DNA of 62,682 nt, the filler included, from Globobulimina sp. (Eukaryota), in the NCBI GenBank assembly GCA_003354225.1. It is 26 parts of 26 records of this genome, joined end to end, with 100 filler letters (N's around TTAATTAATTAA, not from the genome) between each part and the next. Parts side by side here need not be neighbours in the genome. Positions count along the whole stretch, not along the records: positions 2,417 to 4,732 come from PIVH01007435.1; 25 more parts are not named here. One strand, 5' to 3'. The notes below the pieces were generated by a model. The model had not been told where the DNA came from and made no database searches. It saw only the letters and a list, made by a program, of their open reading frames with translations. Within the stretch, counting starts at the first letter, position 1; each line of letters opens with the position of its first letter. This document shows, piece by piece, positions 2,417-31,301 of the stretch. The translations under genes were made by a program, and so were the position numbers.

Positions 2417-4643
2417 TTTAATATTGTTTGGAATCCATGTCACAAAGTCGTCATTTAATTTCTGTTGGATTTTAGCAATTTCGTCATCCACTTCTTGCGT
2501 TGCAATGCTCCCTCGATATCCACACGAAGCAGTCAAATATTTGCCATCTTCGGATTTAATTTTACTTAAAAAATTCCTGTTTGACCACATTTGATCCGTC
2601 AATTCTTGCACCGTCAATTTAACCTTTTCGCTTTGTCCCGGAGCAAATAACGGCGAATGAGCCATTAAAAAGAAGTGCAACCTCGGAAAGGGCACCAAAT
2701 TCACGCCCATTTTCCTCAAATCTCCGTTCAATTTGCCACTAAATCTCAACGAAGCAGTCACACCGGACATAACCATCGAAATCACCCAATTCAAATCAGC
2801 ATATTTCGGCTCTTTCTGCTTTAAGATTTTATGCGAAATGCTAAACAATGCCTGGTTGTCAATCACAAATGTTTCATCTGAGTTTTCTAACAATTGGTTG
2901 ATTGCTAATGTCGCATTGTATGGTTCCACCACAACATCAGACACTTTCGGCGACGGATACACGCTGAAACTCGCCACTATGCGATCCGGATAATTGTCGC
3001 GAATCTTTAATAATAATAAGGTGCCTAACCCGGAGCCTGTACCGCCGCCGATACTGTGCATCAATTGGAAGCCTTGCGGACAATGACAGCCTTCAATCTC
3101 ACGGCGGACCATATCCACGGCCTCGTCGATCAACTCTGCGCCTTCGGTGTAATGCCCCTTTGCCCTGCCACAAAACCACACAATTAATTCTCATCAAACA
3201 ATATTTAAATGTACAAATTATACATACCAATTATTGCCAGTTCCGGCGGCGCCCGACAACATATTATCCGGTTTGAACAAAGAACCCATGGCCGATGACT
3301 TGATCCCGTCCATTATCGAAGGCTCCAAATCGATCAAACACGCCCTCGGCGTAAACCGCATAAACGACGCTTCCTGGAAATAAACACCAATTTTAGCTAA
3401 ACGCAATTCAGCGTCGCGTTGTTCAGGTTTGCCATAAAACTTTCCGCCTTCATCCAATTTATGTTCCTAATCACAGCAAATATATAATTATATATAGAAA
3501 ATATGGAATAAATTATACCTTAATCATGGTGCTCCAGAAGGTCTGTCCAATATTATTGCCACACTGTCCGACTTGAATATGAATGATCTCTCTCTGCGAC
3601 GCCATGGAGTCCAACATCACATATCCCGCACCACCACTTTTCAGCAAGTGCTCGTTGTCATCTTTTAAGCGGTCCACATCCACTGTTAACTGTTGATTTT
3701 GTTTATCAATTTGCGCCAACCGCTTCTTTAATTGTTGGATTTCTTTCTCATATTCCTCATTTTTATCCGCCCGTTGACTCAAATCCAACTCCAAACCTTG
3801 TATTCTCTCACTTTGTTCGTTAATTTCTTGTATGAGCTCGTCAGTATCTTCTTGTTTCTCCATTTCATTTTTAAAATCGTCAAAATCATCAACAAACTCA
3901 TCATCATCGTCGCCCATAATATTCATCACCGTCATCATCCGCGTCATTTGTCGCACCAATCTATTTTCATAAGCATCAATAAACCAATTCTGAGCCACCA
4001 AATTCTGAAACTCGAGGAAAGTAAGTTCGCCATCGCCATTTTCGTCAACCTCGGCGATGATGTCCTTGATCTCCTGCATGGATTTGCTTTGTCCAATTTT
4101 AGCCAAAGCGTGCTGCAGTTCGTCGGCATCGATGGTTCCACCGCCGTCTGCATCAAATTCGTCAAACACAGATTTCATTTCTTGCTGCGACATATTCACA
4201 CTCGCTTTGGCAGTGTCATCCAACCCCAAACTGTCCAAATCCACGCCGTCCAAATCATTGATAAGCATAGTTGTGGTGGACTGATGTCGCGAAATCATCC
4301 ACTTTTTGTCCTCGGCTTCAGCGTCGCTCATTTGTTTAGAAAGTTCGCTCATTCGATCCTGGATGGACAGCATTAACAAATCATGAGCATCGGCCTCGTC
4401 ATCACTGTCGCTGTCACTGTCATTGTCCTGCTTTACTTCTGCTGCGAATGAGACGGTTTTGGGCGAAACCTGCAATGCAGTGGTTGGAGCATCGCCGGTA
4501 TGTAAATGTTGAATGGTTTTATTCAATTCTTGGATATTAGTATTTTTATCGCCCAATTCTAATTTTAATTGTTCGATCAACTCATTCAATTCCTTGATAA
4601 TGGCGTCTTTATCTATCTTCACTTTGGCTTTTTGTGTATCGAC
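2417..4643 (-). CDS. Retarian type-2 beta-tubulin with in-frame N-terminal coiled-coil/EF-hand/coiled-coil extension; partial at both ends; exons 4643-3519, 3466-3228, 3164-2417
   Basis: Tubulin motifs REIIHIQVGQCGN, PRACLIDLEP, GNNWAKGHYTEGAEL, GGGTGSG, VVEPYNATL, DLRKMGVNLVPFPRLHFF, WIPNNIK. GT-AG introns 3467-3518 and 3165-3227 restore the frame. EF loops DADGGGTIDADE and DENGDGELTFLE lie upstream in the same ORF. An AG acceptor precedes 4643. Confidence 0.93.
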
Positions 4644-4832
4644 CTAAGTATCACATCATTAAATATGTAAAAAAAAAACGTGTTTTTAACATGTTTTATA
4701 AGGCTATATTTTGTTTTTGTGTCTCTGTTTTGNNNNNNNNNNNNNNNNNNNNNNNNNNNNNNNNNNNNNNNNNNNNTTAATTAATTAANNNNNNNNNNNN
4801 NNNNNNNNNNNNNNNNNNNNNNNNNNNNNNNN

Positions 4833-6026
4833 ACCTAACATTGTTCCAAGACTCACAAAATAAAACCAGAAATATTCCATTTCAGAGCTTGCATAAACTC
4901 CCAATAAGCCACAAACAATGGATAAGAACGAGGATGCGACCATAATCCAAATATATTTCGGTAATATTCGTTTGAGTAACAGTGGAATTGCAACATTAAC
5001 CACAGCAAAGCCAACAGCAAAGGACATGAGCATCGCAGTCGCATATAATATATCCACCTCATATCTATACAGCATAAACACCACAAAATACAGCGTTGCG
5101 AGTGCTTCAATGCACCACATTGCATTATTAATAATAATCGACAACAATAATAGTACATAATTATCCCTCTCATTGACCCAATAACCTTTCCAAAATTCAA
5201 TAAAATCAGCGACAACATTCTTTTTCTTGCCTTTCTCTTCAAAATTGTCGCATTCATTCCTCTCTTCGCTCAGCAAACACACCGGAAATTGCAGATCATT
5301 TTCGAGCTCACTAATCATAGCAACCGAACGTTGTTCATCCAGCAAATAATGGTAAGAGTTGCGTATAAACAGAACTGCAATGAGACAGCAAATACAATGA
5401 TAGACAGTGTCTACATAGTAAACACTTCTATAATTCGTATATTTTGCAATAACTGAACCAACGACTGGTCCTAACAGATATGCAATGGCACTGAGACTCC
5501 ACAATTGCCCGCACAATTTAACAGCATATTGGTGCGGTAACACTGATGGAATAAATGCAAATGCCACCGCTGTAGTTGGTGCCGAGCTGACAAATACTCC
5601 CAAAGCATACATCCAAAATGTAGTCGCTACAGATTTCAACATCAATCCTATGGTTGTCAGCAGCACAGTGACTACAAATAATGTGTCGTGAGCATACGTA
5701 TCCGTCATTGAAGTGAATACTAAACATGTGAAGCCATAATAAAGTTTAGCAATTGCCATCATAATGGCTATATCCGCAGTGCTAGCCGACGAAAACGACT
5801 GTACATACAGTATTTTAATTGGGTACAATATTCCGACCAAAAATGGTTCTGCCACAGTCACGAACATTATGATTTGTACTTTGGAAATGGTTTGGTTCAA
5901 TATTTGTTCATATTTTGTTTTCTGTTTCAATATTTGAATACGTTCAGCGTCCTTTTCATCATTATCTGTATCTATCGCATTTTCAGCAATAAATGGCACA
6001 TTTTCAGCATGGACGGCATCTAACAT
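4833..6026 (-). CDS. MFS transporter (MFS_1-like), 3' truncated
   Basis: About 10 hydrophobic helices in two bundles with a central loop; AYLLGPVVGSVIA resembles the MFS antiporter motif. Confidence 0.75.
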
Positions 6027-6068
6027 TTTGGCTGTGTTAGTAACTGTACTTCAAAAAAACTTCATCGA

Positions 6069-12080: not shown

Positions 12081-14359
12081 AACCAAAATCAGCCGACATC
12101 GATGGTATTAATATCATAGCATCGTACCATCAATGCTTAATCCGCGAAATACTTTCATTGGACACCAATTGTAATTATTTTTGTCCATTACAACCAAAGC
12201 CGACACCAAAAACGTATCCAAATCAACCGACGCCCGTTGGCGAATCACTTAATTGCATCATCCCACTCAAACCATTGGATACTACGCCGTACGCTGCGCC
12301 GTTTTATCCCAACTCATTCATCGATGATGTATCGAGTGCTACCACCGACGACGACGAACCTCAGCGTCACAAAGCACCGCCACCTGAGCTCGCCGACTAT
12401 GATATTACCACCGAGTCCGATGACGACGCCGCATATTTACCACCATATGCCACTGTGCCGTCCGACTCTGAACACCCAAAAATACCCACTCGCTCATCAC
12501 GCCGCAATAATAAAAATAAAAATCCATCGGATTATATCGACGATACACCATTGATACCTACGATTGGCACCGTTTACGATGCAAAACTATTGAAAGAATC
12601 CGTGGAATTGCGACAAAAACGTAATCTAAATAGGTGCAAACAAAAGGAATTAAATCAAAGAATAATAAATAAAAAAGCCTCATACCCGGTGTACAATAAA
12701 CAGATATTTTACCCGTTTTACAGTACACCAATCCAGGATTATTATACTTCGATAATAAATCCGGACAACGCCGAAACCCAGAAATTAATCGTTGAGAAGC
12801 AATGCGAAGATTGGTCCATATATGGCATTATCCGGTATCTCCGCGAAAATAATCCCGATCTCATTGCTAAATTACCAAAATATTTACGCCGATATGTGCT
12901 ATCCGGCCGATATAAATTAAACGAATATAATGGGATATTATATTATATCCATAATACCACGCAACAGGAATTGATTGTGGCTCCGTGGCAAATACGTAAA
13001 TCAATCATGAAATTTGCTCATTCTTCGCTCCATCCCGGCTCCACTGTAATGAATAGAATTATTATTAATAAAATGGGTTATTGGTGGCCGAAAATGCGAC
13101 GCGAAATACATTGCTATACGGCAACATGTGATACCTGCCAACGTGTGAAAATTGGATCGCATTCTCGCAGTAAAAAATCGCATAAAATAAAATTATTCCC
13201 CACCACGAAGCCATTTCAACAGATATCCGTTGATATTGTTGGTCCATTAATGCTCGCAAAGTCCAAAAATCGATATATTGTCACTATGATTGATAAATTT
13301 AGCCGATTCACGATGATGGAGCCTGTGCGCGACATTCGAGCCATTTCCGTCATCAAAGCCACGTTTGGACCGCCCGAAAGCATCCTATCCGATAATGGCA
13401 GCCAATTTATATCATCTATGTATAAGAATTATATGTTAAATCATGGAGATATAACAAGAAAATATACAACCACATACCATCCAGAATGTAATGGCCAGAT
13501 CGAACGATTGCATCGGTGGCTGAAGGAACGGCTGGCGTTGATTGCGCAGGATGGAGGCCTCAACTTTTTAGATGGGACCGATGATTGGTCCGATTACCTC
13601 CCAATAATTCAGTATACATACAATTCATTGCCGAATCGTATGACCACGTACTCGCCCATGAATATTATATTTGGCCGCGATCCGTATAAAATATTGCATT
13701 ATGAGTTTGACCGTAATAATCCATTGGAATATACCCGATTTATGGCTAATCGCTTGAATATTATTCGTAACGACGCGAACGAGGCCCAGCGGATTTACGA
13801 CGAACTCCGAACAAAAACATATGATAAAAATAAAATTGATGACCCATTCGTCATCGGACAGCATGTATTATATAATATGGCCTCGCATTATATCGGAAAT
13901 CGGCAGAAATTCGACGATCGCTGGGTTGGACCGTTTGAAATAATAAAAATTTATGGCAATGACTCCTATAAAATCCGCTCATTGATACCTAACAATGAGA
14001 ACGCGGACATGTATGACAATCCACCCGATGCCGAATATAATACATTTAATGCGCCCAAAGTCCATCTCAAGCTCTATTATTATGAGGATACACCGCATGA
14101 ATACGTCTCAAAACCACCCGCATTGATAATGTGCCACGCTCTCGAATCACAGCTCTGTTTATTATCAAATCAATACATTAAAATAAAAAGAGAGAGTGAA
14201 CGGATACCTCTGTCCCCGACAACCATCCAAGAACAATTTGAATTGTATAATACATTGACAAATACCATCCCAAACCAATTTAATTCCATTAATAACACAT
14301 TATTAATCATGCAATCTCAGTTTAACTACAATGAGATGCATGAATGTATATATTTATAA
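12081..14359 (+). mobile_element. Ty3/gypsy-type LTR retrotransposon pol, 3' part (integrase); ORF open from the contig edge
   Basis: Zn-binding H..H...YWWPKM...CDTCQ; catalytic FQQISVDIVGP, SDNGSQF, YHPECNGQIER; WSDYLPIIQYTYN; GPY/F module RWVGPFEI. Confidence 0.93.
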
Positions 14360-22380: not shown

Positions 22381-23770
22381 ATGTGTGTAAGCAGCGCAAC
22401 TGTTGTTGCCACGTTTGGATTGGTTTCATCGTATCAAATTACAAAAAGAATTGAGAAAAATGGATGGAAAGAAATACAACAAAATGTATGCAACACACGA
22501 AAAATCTATTAAATTCTTATTGATTAATTGCAAATTGTTTTTTTGTTTGAAAACTGAAAGGTTAAAATAGCACAAATCACAGATAACGAATATTTTAATC
22601 GACCAATGATTAAAGAAGAACTATGCAAACAATTGCAATCCAACAACAATAATTCATTCATTATAAGTGGACGAAAAAACTTCGGTAAAACCGCAACGAT
22701 AAAAAATGCATTTCAACATTGCAACTTTCCTTACATATCCTTAGATTTTCACGGCAAACAGTTAGATGACAATGATAATGATACATTTATTGAGATATTT
22801 GAAGATAATATGAACGATCCAAAATGGTACAGACGTTTAATGCGCAGATTTTATCCAAATTATAACAATTATGTAATAAAGCGATGGATTGACAGCATTC
22901 AAACATTAAGTTCCGAGATGAAAATTAAAAACAAAAAGGATATCCGATGGATTATATTGGATGGAATTGATATAAATGATATTTTGCGAAATAGTAAATT
23001 AAAAAATGACATTAATTTATTGAATCAACAAATGTGTGATTTTGCATCAATTATAGTGAGTGTAACAAGTGAATCTCCGCTAAAATCCGCAAAATTGTTT
23101 AATAAATTGGATGGATGGAATAGTAATATATGGATTGGACAATTTAAAAATAGAGCCATTGCTTTGGAATATGTTGAATCGAAACTATGTGTTTTTAAAA
23201 ATATATCGGAGAATGACAGACATTGCGTTGTTGATTTTTGTCGACTTAATATTGCTGATATAAATTATTGCATTCATCGACTTGAACAAAACGAAAAGAA
23301 TGAACAGAAAAAGACATTTGATGATATTTGGAAAGATATAAAACAAAAAAGAATGGATTTCTATGTGGAACAGCAACCATTATTACATTGGACAGATGTT
23401 AATTTTTGGAAGGAATTTATGAATGAAATGGTTGGCGGTATTGAAATATCAAAAGAATTTGAATTAAATGCATGTAAATATTTGTTATATTCATATTTTA
23501 CATCAGTTGTTATTGTTGGATGCACCGCATTTGATTTAATACAACATTTTGGTGGAAATATAGAAATTGTAAATCTTTTAATAGAGAATGGATGTTTGAG
23601 TCAATATGGTGGCGAATTGACACAACCATTTAATTTATTTAATAAATCTGTATTAATGCCGTCATCGCAAGTAAAATATACAACATTTCAAGAAATATTT
23701 AATGATCAAAATAATACGGTATTATCGGATATGGCATTATTTGTGACGAGACATTACATATTTAATAGGG
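22381..23770 (+). CDS. P-loop ATPase (ATPase_2/STAND-like) with N-terminal hydrophobic anchor; intron 22486-22560; possible extra micro-exon from 22308
   Basis: YFNRPMIKEEL, Walker A GRKNFGKT, Walker B WIILDG. The upstream exon MCVSSATVVATFGLV splices in frame. Confidence 0.65.
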
Positions 23771-24056
23771 AATTAATCCGTGCCCAAACTGACACTGATA
23801 CAATAAAAGCAGATCTTGATTCAGGTCTAACAATCTCTCCGGATGGTGGTACTCGTCAGGATATTCAAAATCAAAGTACATTCTTGTATCTCTTGATAAT
23901 TTCATTAATTTGTATTTTCTTGTTTCTTGTGATTCTTTTCGAGAGCTTTATTGATCCTTGCATCGCATTTATTACTGTGCCACTTGCAACATTTGGTGGT
24001 TTCTTTGCGCTTTGGATGTACGGAGGATACTTTAGTACATTAATGCGTATGGGCTT
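23771..24056 (+). other. Bacterial AcrB/AcrD/AcrF (RND permease)-like fragment in frame with the eukaryotic ATPase ORF; junction position approximate
   Basis: LDSGLTISPDGGTRQ...LICIFLFLVILFESFIDPCIAFITVPLATFGGFFALW matches the RND pattern L...FESF.DP..I...VPLA..G...AL. Confidence 0.75.
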
Positions 24057-28986: not shown

Positions 28987-31301
28987 AAAGTATTAATAAA
29001 ACGGATTGGAGCAGTACCGATATTTGAAAAATATCCAAATTTAATTGAGATATTATTACATTCGTATTGCGTTGTTGGTGGCGTCGCAATCACATTGTTA
29101 CAATTACTATTAAATTTGGCCAAAAATGAATATGATAATCTGGAAAAATGGAGAGAATTATGGATGGATCCTGTTTGTAAAGGATTGCTGGATTCAAATA
29201 AAATGATACAGAAAATTACAAATGTTGCTTTATTAAAATATTTGATAAGAAATGATCCAAAGTCATATTTCCCGTTACTTGAACATATATTAATGTCAAA
29301 TAATTTGTCTTCGTTAATTGCAATATTAAAATATGGCAAAAGAAATGGAAGCATCACCAATAATATGTTAGAAGAATGGTTGACATCCAACAATAAGTCA
29401 ATTAAGTTAATTAACAGAGATTTAATATTTAAATGTTCATTGCATAATGACATAGAAATTAGAATGTCCACATTGGAAATAATTTGTGTATCATCACTAA
29501 GCACAGACATTCCAGGAATAAATCAATTTAAATTGTTACAAACAATATTGCCATATTTAATGAAATTGCAAATGAGTAAACATCGGGATGAGTTTGTGCA
29601 ATGTATACAAAAATTATTGTTACGAATGAAAAATGGATGTTATAAAATATTGCATCAAACGCGTAAGTCAACAGATACAAGTCCTAAAATTGTAAATTGT
29701 TTAGATTTTATTGAATGGTTTCGATTATTTTTATTAAATAATTTATATTCAGGTGCTCCAATTGAAAGAATGTCAACTTCCATTACTTTGTATTATTTCT
29801 TATTACAAATTTGGACCCACAATGAAAATGAAAACAAAACAAAATATCAAATATTAGAAATACCATTGTTAACAAATAATAAATATATAGTAAATATATT
29901 ATTAAATTGCATGATGAGTGGTAGGGATCAAATACGTTTGTTATCACATAAAATATTACAATTATTACCATCACCACTTCCTGGATATGACACTGAGCAG
30001 TCAGTGATTAAATTAATTAAAAAATGTTTGCTTTTAGCGACTTCCCCCAAATTATTAGAATCTGATTGCGGCGCCTTGTCATTGTCAATTATATTTAATA
30101 AATACGTAAAAAAATTAAAATGGTCAGTTGATTTACTTTCTGTCTTTAATAATTTATCCGCAAATAATATTAACATTAATATTAAAATTAATCAACACGA
30201 AAAAGCAGAAGAAGCAATATTATCATTTTTAAATAGTTTTAATGGGATATTAAATACACATATTTCAATTATATCAGTTATACCATATCATAAACGATAT
30301 CGATCATCACATCACAGAGTACATGGATTATTAACATTTTTTAGGCAAATTCTACCAAATTTAAAATTAAAATTACAATCAAAATGGAAAAAAACATTGT
30401 CAAACATTCTGAAAAACGTTTTTGAAATTGGTGAAATGTCGTTAATTCTTCATACCAGAAATCCAAAACAAAAACAAATTGAAAATGCAGAAATTAAACA
30501 GAATGAAAAGGAAAATGTGAAATTAATTGGAATTGATTGTAGAGGACATATGACATTTTCTGGTTTAAATGATTATAGTGATCAACAAATGGAACAAATG
30601 ATTGTTGTTTCGAGTTGGTTGGCTGTAAAAGAATCGTGTTTATCATTAGCTGCAATTATTAAAAATTGTATAACATTATTAGAGATTGAAGATATACAAA
30701 AAATGGGAGCATTTTTCCTTCAAACTTTACAAACAACGCGACATAATGGGGTCATACAAAAATCCCATGCTGGTTTTGCGACGTTATGTAGCTGTTTGTT
30801 AAGATCTGATAAGACATATTTAAAAGATATGGTTAAAAACTGGCTGGACACACTATTAAATATTGTTAAAAATGATGCGGAGCAACATTGGATTCGTAGA
30901 TCCGCCGGATTTCCATATGGATTTTTAGCAATACTTGAGGCAGAATGTAAAATAAAAACAAATAATAAACAGTTATTTAAATATGCAATGAAGCAATTAT
31001 TAATTGAAGCAAATCAAAATAATACATGGCAATCAACAGTTGTATCATTAAATATTATTATGTTTATATTTCGAAATTCTTTATTTTCTTTATCTATCAC
31101 ACCGTTTATATCTGAAACATTTCAAATTGTTTTGCCAGGATTTGCTAACAAACAATGGGCGGTTCGCAATTCAAGTATGCTTTGTTTAACTGCTATTATT
31201 TCACGAGCAATCAGCAAAGCTCACGATATCATGAAAATTGATACAACCCATAATAATAACCAAGAAAGTGAATTTTTTAATGGATTATTACTGTTAAATA
31301 T
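28987..31301 (+). CDS. THADA: THADA / Trm732 armadillo-repeat protein (DUF2428), internal fragment
   Basis: VSSWLAVKESC, TTRHNGV, IRRSAGFPY, VVSLNII..IFR and WAVRNSS motifs. The ORF spans the whole contig. Confidence 0.9.

Follow-up and report, generated by a model that had tools for sequence, protein, structure and literature searches.

Evidence for a foraminiferal gene joining a kinesin-like motor, an EF-hand stalk and a beta2-tubulin in one polypeptide

Kinesins attach to their tracks non-covalently, and it is the kinesin tail that selects the cargo. Kinesin-1 (through its tail), the kinesin-14 Ncd and kinesin-5 slide or cross-link microtubules by means of a second, non-motor microtubule-binding site. 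Tubulin itself is, to our knowledge, among the most constrained of eukaryotic proteins and is almost never found fused. Foraminifera and Radiolaria reportedly have a divergent beta-tubulin paralogue, an observation credited to Habura in 2005 and to Hou in 2013. Published accounts describe the divergent beta2 clade as confined to Retaria (PMC5455982), the helical filaments of foraminifera as a storage or transport form of tubulin that Ca or Mg induces reversibly (PMC4990898), the microtubule bundles of lysed Reticulomyxa as splaying actively (PMC2113829), and kinesin-1 as being under Ca2+ control through Miro/TRAK (PMC12227652). Here we describe a gene of the foraminiferan Globobulimina sp., located in a 62,682-nt stretch of assembly GCA_003354225.1 (the window, meaning the whole stretch of DNA that was analysed), which very probably encodes a single polypeptide consisting, in order, of a kinesin-like motor, a neck coiled coil, an acidic stretch, an EF-hand pair, a second coiled coil, a 13-residue linker and a beta2-tubulin.

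The window strings together about 26 contigs, each of approximately 2316 bases, with 100-base spacers between them; the spacer word TTAATTAATTAA, flanked on both sides by N44, was found 26 times (0.18 expected) at a spacing of about 2415 bases. As the window consists of joined contigs, the gene is truncated at both contig ends and its flanks are unrelated DNA, and any feature that seems to cross a spacer is an artefact. The whole finding is held by one contig (2417..4732, 2316 bases, no strand assigned), which has an artificial 100-base spacer (N44-TTAATTAATTAA-N44) on either side. A tblastn search with P0001, an orthologue described below, gave matches in the window that were confined to 2417-4643, and the nearest relatives of the organism's proteins are foraminiferal.

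All features of the gene are on the minus strand, where a frame at 3513..4643(-) is open for 376 codons from stop to stop, a length whose chance at the base composition of the contig is about 2e-12. Upstream of it, 4644..4732 is the AT-rich last part of an intron; it contains a T10 tract and has its acceptor AG at 4645-4644. The exons for the kinesin motor are upstream of this, off the contig. The large exon (3519..4643, 375 codons), delimited by the open frame, Pfam and a collinear alignment with P0001, P0002 and P0016, encodes the neck and stalk, EF-hands, coiled coil 2 and linker, and includes the tubulin's first 25 codons. It is followed by intron 1 (3467..3518; 52 nt, GT..AG, GC 0.17), tubulin exon 2 (3228..3466; Pfam Tubulin E 3.2e-07, with contigs and alignment in agreement), intron 2 (3165..3227; 63 nt, GT..AG, GC 0.27, phase 2), which splits the Trp codon where NNW joins AKGHY, and tubulin exon 3 (2417..3164; Tubulin E 4.3e-35), which the contig end cuts at ...WIPNNIK, so that about 100 C-terminal tubulin residues are off the contig. 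With both introns removed, the three exons join into 704 codons with no stops.

Within the large exon, coiled coil 1 (4500..4610, residues 12-48, IDKDAIIKELNELIEQLK...) is identified as a kinesin neck coiled coil by contacts in a dimer model and by its conservation in the family. A variable, partly acidic stretch (DNDSDSDSDDEAD) at 4194..4499 aligns poorly between species, with many gaps, and leads to the EF-hand pair at 3996..4184. Coiled coil 2 (3633..3845, residues 267-337) is delimited by dimer-model contacts and has weak matches to the Tropomyosin, bZIP and APG6 coiled coils. The linker KSGGAGYVMLDSMASQ (3594..3632) has 13 residues and contains an internal ATG at 3605-3603. The beta2-tubulin domain, placed by Pfam and alignment, then starts at 3519..3593 (REIIHIQVGQCGNNIG...) and lacks its own start Met; in the frame of the large exon Pfam puts its first residues at 352-373. 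Reading through the junction gives ...KSGGAGYVMLDSMASQREIIHIQVGQCGNN with no stop, and the peptide that spans the boundary between linker and tubulin is ...GGAGYVMLDSMASQREIIHIQ... An earlier note on this DNA, made from the sequence alone, had described one uninterrupted frame from a coiled coil through an acidic stretch, EF loops, a second coiled coil and a GGAG linker into tubulin, followed by two clean introns and an intact tubulin body. All of these elements were found where the note had placed them, the open frame and Pfam bear out the continuity, and both introns are AT-rich with GT..AG borders and are skipped by contigs from public runs.

What precedes the tubulin is best understood from relatives of the large-exon translation, for which a search among longer proteins returned 15 matches. 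Two of these, P0001 (1161 aa, Nonionella stella; identity 47% across 95% of the query) and P0002 (1190 aa, Elphidium margaritaceum; identity 37%), have Kinesin, EF-hand, Tubulin and Tubulin_C in one open reading frame (ORF), so the co-occurrence of EF-hand and Tubulin for which the earlier note had recommended a profile search does exist outside the window. Both are full-length proteins from transcriptomes and have the order kinesin motor, coiled coil, EF-hands, coiled coil and whole beta-tubulin. Another six of the 15 (P0004-P0009) combine kinesin with EF-hands and have no tubulin, and the other seven match by their EF-hands alone. A search for close relatives (14 matches) added P0016 from Bolivina argentea, a 332-aa fragment that comprises coiled coil 2, linker and tubulin. 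The species of P0001, P0002 and P0016 were taken from their EukProt accessions, and the window model is collinear with all three in the alignment. This arrangement recurs in no fewer than three foraminifera besides Globobulimina.

The orthologues begin with a kinesin motor domain of about 355 aa, and at the start of the window exon P0001 reads ...LNFAKQTQLVKVDTVKAKKKIDKDAIIKELN... The corresponding motor end of the Globobulimina gene was found in a public run: record 21 of X6 matches 4024-4643 and continues with 129 further letters that are not in the window, of which the first 30 beyond 4643 encode NFAKQTQLVK, in frame with VDTQKAK. This decapeptide is the conserved end of the motor domain in the kinesin-EF-hand family (consensus ...LNFAKQTQLVKVDT). 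Because the contig departs from the window exactly at 4643, that position is a true exon start, as the earlier note had proposed when it placed an acceptor there. The last 10 codons of the motor of the window gene are thus seen, in an RNA-type contig, and the motor tests described below were made on the orthologues. The same note had presented the gene as a tubulin with an N-terminal extension of about 345 aa or more, and this part of its reading needs to be replaced. The extension runs upstream into a kinesin motor, off the contig, and is the stalk of a kinesin-like motor, judging from the exon with NFAKQTQLVK and the motors of the orthologues. Its phrase "a tubulin carrying its own Ca2+ sensor" holds in that an EF-hand pair and a tubulin are in one chain, and missed the motor. 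Since the upstream exon encodes a motor end and the orthologues start with a motor, "kinesin with a tubulin tail" is the better description.

In the orthologues and the wider family the motor scores 80-122 bits with Pfam Kinesin (cut-off 29.3). All four kinesin nucleotide motifs (RxRP, GQxxxGK[ST], SSRxH, DxxGxE) are present in the motors of the orthologues. The P-loop reads GQSGSGKS, and 15 family members have SSRGH and DLAGSEGQ without variation. Motor identity to P0033 is 67-81% within the family and 53% for P0052. An AlphaFold model from a 15-row alignment (pLDDT 69, pTM 0.74) matched kinesin motors over its full length in Foldseek (TM 0.63-0.72, about 20% identity), and plant KCBP-type entries of the PDB (3h4s, 1sdm, 3cob) were among these fold matches. 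Kinesin-2, CENP-E (kinesin-7), kinesin-1 and Eg5 (kinesin-5) matched the motor with near-equal scores (E 1.6e-13 to 1e-11, about 20% identity). Where the tubulin would sit, the paralogue P0005 (811 aa) has a coiled coil and P0052 (1016 aa) a SAM domain. As far as can be judged from these sequences, the kinesin-EF-hand family exchanges its tail modules: P0005 has a coiled coil, P0052 has SAM, and the window gene, like P0001 and P0002, has tubulin. P0052, like P0001, is from Nonionella stella; it is a kinesin-EF-hand paralogue that ends in the SAM domain and has no tubulin.

The junction between stalk and tubulin is conserved. The four junctions that can be compared (window 3594-3632, P0001, P0002 and P0016) follow the pattern GG.G (or KN) [YF][VMI]M[LMV] ... 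[QST]REI[IV]HIQ. In all four the start Met of tubulin is replaced (by Q, S, T and Q), and in all four the hydrophobic motif [YF][VMI]M[LMV] is found 9-10 residues before the REI of tubulin, where it may cap the tubulin structurally or may contain a conserved internal start codon. The Met encoded at 3605 in the window is kept in two of the four junctions, the other two species having Leu and Pro there.

The tubulin domain matches Pfam Tubulin with E 4.3e-35. Its match to Tubulin_C (E 7e-20) is partial, positions 1-90 of 126, because the contig ends, and both the T1 (GQCGN) and T4 (GGGTGSG) signatures are present. Exon 3 reaches 89% identity to a protein of Globobulimina turgida and to tubulins of marine metatranscriptomes. 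Among unnamed tubulins the closest are P0178 and P0183-P0185, which are 86-88% identical and N-terminally cut. Eleven of 120 listed tubulins have an intact N terminus and all 11 begin with M[VA]REI, in a search whose length limit shuts out fused forms; P0298, which belongs to the cluster of the Globobulimina turgida protein, is a stand-alone tubulin that starts with MVREIIHVQVGQCGNQIG, and proteins of the radiolarian Astrolonche start alike.

To place the fused domains we built a careful tree of 34 rows. It comprised these four domains, three cluster members, five canonical beta-tubulins (one of them from Echinococcus) and 22 proteins selected for coverage from the 120 listed. The divergent (beta2) clade, which includes P0298 and the Astrolonche proteins P0300 and P0303, was separated from canonical beta with support of 100/100. 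The four fused tubulin domains form one clade (99/97) within its foraminiferal part; in an earlier quick tree of 67 rows the support for the fused clade was 97. Nineteen alignment columns are common to fused and stand-alone beta2 as against canonical beta, and five invariant columns are specific to the fused forms. The resemblance to retarian beta2-tubulin that the earlier note had drawn from a few motifs is therefore borne out by the clade placement and by these 19 columns, which include the motifs it quoted, and the phylogeny that it called for places the fused domains inside beta2 as a separate lineage. Of the five columns specific to the fused forms, two fall in nucleotide loops, where T2 reads LEPS for LEPG and T3 reads GTGNN for GAGNN; in addition, the T1 Gln of GQCGNQ is Asn or His in all four. 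Identity to P0001 is 287/354 in the tubulin domain and 161/334 in the extension, a difference which suggests that selection on the tubulin domain is purifying. The existence of a separate fused clade argues against a chimera with an abundant stand-alone beta2 transcript.

These two results, the junction shared by four species and the separate clade, matter because public protein sets contain false tubulin fusions. We surveyed 20 of 150 listed representatives, chosen as long or as having a late-starting tubulin match, for N-terminally extended tubulins. Kinesin and tubulin were together in none of the 20, from a library clustered at 50% identity, which hides full-length fused forms. Nineteen of the 20 hold tubulin domains, the remaining one being the kinesin-EF-hand-SAM protein P0052. 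Six proteins (P0031, P0043, P0044, P0053, P0056 and P0152) join a canonical beta-tubulin to a 7tm, PQQ, CAP, pseudouridine synthase, exostosin or Ig/Sushi domain, and these are probably gene-model errors. We accordingly rejected the idea that N-terminally extended tubulins are common in general, as the six of the 19 that carry an unrelated extra domain were taken to be such errors.

Four public runs (X1, X5, X6 and X8) were aligned to the contig in the form of assembled contigs, which show continuity and splicing and not transcript ends or levels; stretches free of contigs in the RNA-type runs (for example 4679-4732) are uninformative. X1 is identical to the window, keeps the introns and may be the source sample, and X5, X6 and X8 are from three other sequencing studies. 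Record 5 of X1 covers 3269-3899 unspliced with no differing letters and so spans the junction (at about 3600) in an independent assembly. Record 12 of X5 (1233 nt, seven differing letters) matches 4256-3518 and 3465-3210 with intron 1 removed, placing the EF-hands, coiled coil 2, the linker and tubulin exon 2 on one contig. Record 18 of X6 matches 3632-3518, 3465-3227 and 3163-2747, lacking both introns, and record 23 of X8 matches 3695-3518 and 3465-3227. Intron 1 is thus skipped by one contig each of X5, X6 and X8 and intron 2 by contigs of X6 and X8, and since the skips fall exactly at the GT..AG borders these contigs derive from processed RNA. The earlier note had named continuity around 3600 as one point on which its reading could fail, and that point is crossed by both an unspliced (X1) and a spliced (X5) contig. 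The fusion gene is transcribed and spliced and is no assembly chimera.

X6 and X8 diverge from the window by 3-4% and X1 also has variant contigs of about 96% identity, so a second allele or copy exists. One X1 contig joins 3478 to 3549, skipping 70 bases, and another follows the window as far as 3210, beyond which it has 255 GC-rich letters absent from the window; together with the variants these oddities hint at a second copy or allele in which intron 1 and the intron 2 region differ. Contig depths are alike across the junction (20.4 vs 18.7-22 in X8, 107 vs 128-149 in X6) and were not used, as they cannot rank parts of the gene.

The EF-hand pair (residues 154-216, window 3996-4184) matches EF-hand_7 with E 1e-14 and 55 bits (cut-off 30) and EF-hand_1 in two stretches. 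Loop 1, DADGGGTIDADE, at 4119-4154, carries D at positions 1 and 3, Gly at ligand position 5 and E at position 12, and loop 2, DENGDGELTFLE, at 4011-4046, is fully canonical. Among 19 family members F160, F163, D164, D166, G169, D172 and E175 are near-invariant, positions 1, 3, 6, 9 and 12 of loop 1 included, as are in the neck I10, D11, K12, D13, I15, I16, L19, I23 and L26. A two-copy fold of the 346-aa extension scored 0.35, compared with 0.01 for the best of three controls. In this test the dimer mark was reached by 21 of 30 microbial proteins solved as same-chain pairs and none of 23 solved as single chains, and by 17 of 29 eukaryotic pairs, though by only one of the seven with no older solved relative, and none of 30 eukaryotic single chains. 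For the extension the runs share at least 45% of contacts with a partner pLDDT of at least 52, in a job that did not use the supplied alignment. In the model the two chains run parallel, with in-register contacts at residues 12-48 and 267-337, and the second coiled coil ends 13 residues before the tubulin. The EF-hand pair of the earlier note, which looks canonical, and its two coiled coils are accordingly present by Pfam and the dimer model. Ca2+ sensing and cross-linking are putative functions of the protein.

We propose that the protein forms a parallel dimer through both coiled coils, like other kinesins with N-terminal motors, which would leave a pair of motor heads at one end and, at the opposite end, two adjacent beta2-tubulins. 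The tubulin would stand in place of the coiled-coil or SAM cargo tail of the paralogues, and by pairing with alpha-tubulin it could become part of a microtubule or helical filament, or cap one. With the motor covalently fixed in this way to one tubulin polymer, its heads would walk on an adjacent microtubule, resulting in cross-bridging, in sliding of microtubule on microtubule, or in haulage of stored polymer along reticulopodial tracks. Ca2+ bound by the EF-hand pair between the coiled coils might alter the stalk or switch the motor. The proposal agrees with published descriptions of helical filaments as a stored or transported form that responds to Ca or Mg (PMC4990898) and of active bundle splaying in lysed Reticulomyxa networks (PMC2113829). 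We put forward this mechanism, a Ca2+-switched motor anchored covalently to tubulin polymer that slides, cross-bridges or hauls, tentatively, as a possibility that falls somewhat short of probable; for architecture and mechanism taken together, our judgment inclines modestly in favour. More doubtful is a bolder form, in which the protein co-polymerises with alpha-tubulin so that microtubules or helical filaments bear covalent kinesin heads and become self-moving under Ca2+ control.

Several observations weigh against the proposed mechanism. The motor is very divergent (the best of 136 solved-structure matches has E 1.6e-13), and in our reading it has an insertion of about 35 residues after DLAGSE and an apparently degenerate L12 motif, both on surfaces expected to touch tubulin. 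The confidence of its model is only moderate, and the motor may not be one that walks. The changes in T1, T2 and T3 could mean altered or lost GTP handling. The dimer result may reflect likeness, because coiled coils resemble many solved structures. The window gene is seen in contigs, no single one of which links motor to tubulin, and the X6 and X8 contigs break between 3632 and 3700. All four junctions keep a Met 9-10 residues ahead of REI, which makes a conserved internal start conceivable. That the motor hydrolyses ATP and moves, that the EF-hands bind Ca2+, and that the tail pairs with alpha-tubulin and is built into polymer are all properties that we infer. Finally, the bidirectional organelle transport of Reticulomyxa is described (PMC2288898) as having dynein-like and not kinesin-like nucleotide requirements.

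The same architecture could serve other ends. With 13 residues separating the end of the parallel coiled coil from the tubulin, the two beta2-tubulins would be held side by side, and with alpha-tubulin they might form a ready lateral pair that nucleates or caps microtubules or helical filaments, the motor delivering the pair to plus ends and Ca2+ acting as the gate. The register of coiled coil 2, kept up to residue 337 of 346 in the dimer model, speaks for this, as does the view (PMC4990898) that the helical filaments are laterally joined strands of heterodimers induced by Ca or Mg; the changes of the fused clade at loops of the exchangeable nucleotide would also suit a subunit specialised for polymer ends. 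Nevertheless, there is no sign that the two tubulins can reach lateral contact, and a motor anchored in polymer fits the same data equally well; we regard such a seed or cap as unlikely. Slightly less likely again, in our estimation, is a tubulin tail that never polymerises and instead binds the heads of its own or the next molecule, either as an autoinhibitory pseudo-track or in head-to-tail chains, until Ca2+ at the EF-hands releases it. Many kinesins are autoinhibited through tail-to-head folding, a "kinesin-1 tail complex" (PDB 8rhb) is among the fold matches of the motor, and the EF-hand pair is at a natural hinge between the coiled coils. A docking pad, however, would need less constraint than is implied by 19 columns shared with beta2, five of its own and retained GTP signatures, and alpha-tubulin would be required anyway, as kinesin contacts span the alpha-beta tubulin dimer.

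Two further explanations would separate the tubulin from the motor. The tubulin could be produced on its own, from an internal start (the ATG at 3605 or the Met before REI), from an internal promoter or by cleavage at the linker, in the way that other Rhizaria make actin as a cleavable ubiquitin fusion. The ATG at 3605 is in frame, the Met within [YF][VMI]M[LMV] is kept in four of four junctions, and transcript starts are invisible in contigs. On the other hand, the Met at 3605 is kept in just two of four species, and the residues around the conserved Met are themselves conserved, which indicates constraint on the protein. Stand-alone beta2 genes exist (the 11 of 120 listed tubulins with an N terminus, all M[VA]REI) and make a second source of tubulin seem unnecessary. 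The fused tubulins constitute an old clade apart from these, the X5 contig is unbroken across the junction, and Pfam found no ubiquitin or known cleavage module there. We give separate production only a small chance. An assembly or transcript chimera, or a dead gene, might be suspected in an assembly of very short contigs, and six of the 20 long proteins scanned do join canonical beta-tubulin to an unrelated domain. This explanation is largely refuted and now highly improbable: the same junction is found in four species, it is crossed unspliced by the X1 assembly and spliced by contigs of three further studies, there are 704 codons without a stop, and the tubulin domain is conserved and forms its own clade.

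A motor covalently anchored in tubulin polymer therefore remains the explanation that we prefer, and the gene is of interest on several counts. A conserved and expressed kinesin/tubulin gene with a Ca2+-binding stalk would be a natural experiment in motor-track coupling, and a defined protein makes the questions of such coupling testable. It is a molecular candidate in long-standing foraminiferal puzzles, namely the very fast assembly of microtubules, their sliding, and the conversion and transport of helical filaments, and it would directly connect a motor with the divergent retarian tubulins alpha2 and beta2. If the bolder form were true, self-moving polymers would lie behind the very fast sliding of reticulopodial microtubules, the splaying of bundles and the delivery of stored tubulin; a motor peptide-bonded to its own track subunit would be a new category of cytoskeletal element. 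The protein could in any case be a natural template for engineered self-propelled filaments. As far as we have searched, the architecture is undescribed, as the earlier note also supposed: we found no description of a kinesin-tubulin fusion in the open literature, a search whose coverage did not extend to the 2014 Reticulomyxa genome paper (Curr Biol) and its supplements, and the passages on foraminifera, tubulin or kinesin in PMC5455982, PMC13371060, PMC13746701, PMC10284544 and PMC3079666 contain no such protein.

Other contigs of the window encode unrelated proteins. The neighbouring contig has an MFS transporter at 4833-6050. A 758-codon frame at 12083-14356 (+) encodes an integrase zinc-binding domain (Integrase_H2C2 E 5e-11) and an integrase core (rve E 6.6e-09) and is part of a retroelement pol. 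A 499-codon frame at 22558-24054 (+), the last 90 residues of which match the bacterial-type AcrB/AcrD/AcrF family (E 6.9e-14), could represent contamination, a transferred gene or a eukaryotic RND relative. At 28987-31299 (+) a THADA/Trm732 homologue (DUF2428 E 4e-45, TPR_Trm732 E 2.2e-20) fills a whole contig with no intron.

The kinesin-EF-hand-tubulin protein can be compared with four kinds of known systems. With the cross-linking and sliding kinesins (kinesin-1 through its tail, kinesin-14 Ncd and kinesin-5) it shares an N-terminal motor, the four nucleotide motifs, a predicted dimeric stalk and a tail directed at tubulin polymer. In those proteins, however, the tail is a tubulin-binding peptide, whereas that of the fusion is tubulin itself; in addition, the fusion motor is close to no kinesin family (best PDB E 1.6e-13) and an EF-hand pair is present within its stalk. 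Plant KCBP with calmodulin or KIC, and kinesin-1 with Miro/TRAK, are similar in that EF-hand proteins sense Ca2+ to control a kinesin. Their sensor is a separate protein, while the EF-hands of the fusion are in the heavy chain between the coiled coils, and KCBP has a C-terminal motor with a calmodulin-binding helix, unlike the N-terminal motor of the fusion family. The paralogous foraminiferal kinesin-EF-hand proteins (P0004-P0009, P0019 and P0052) have the same motor, neck, EF-hand pair and coiled coil 2, and differ in having a coiled-coil (P0005) or SAM (P0052) tail in place of tubulin. Lastly, the tubulin domain in the window falls within the retarian beta2 clade and shares its 19 columns. 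Stand-alone beta2-tubulins are about 450 aa long and start with MVREI, whereas the window domain is embedded after about 700 residues of motor and stalk, and the fused forms constitute a clade of their own with changes in T1, T2 and T3.

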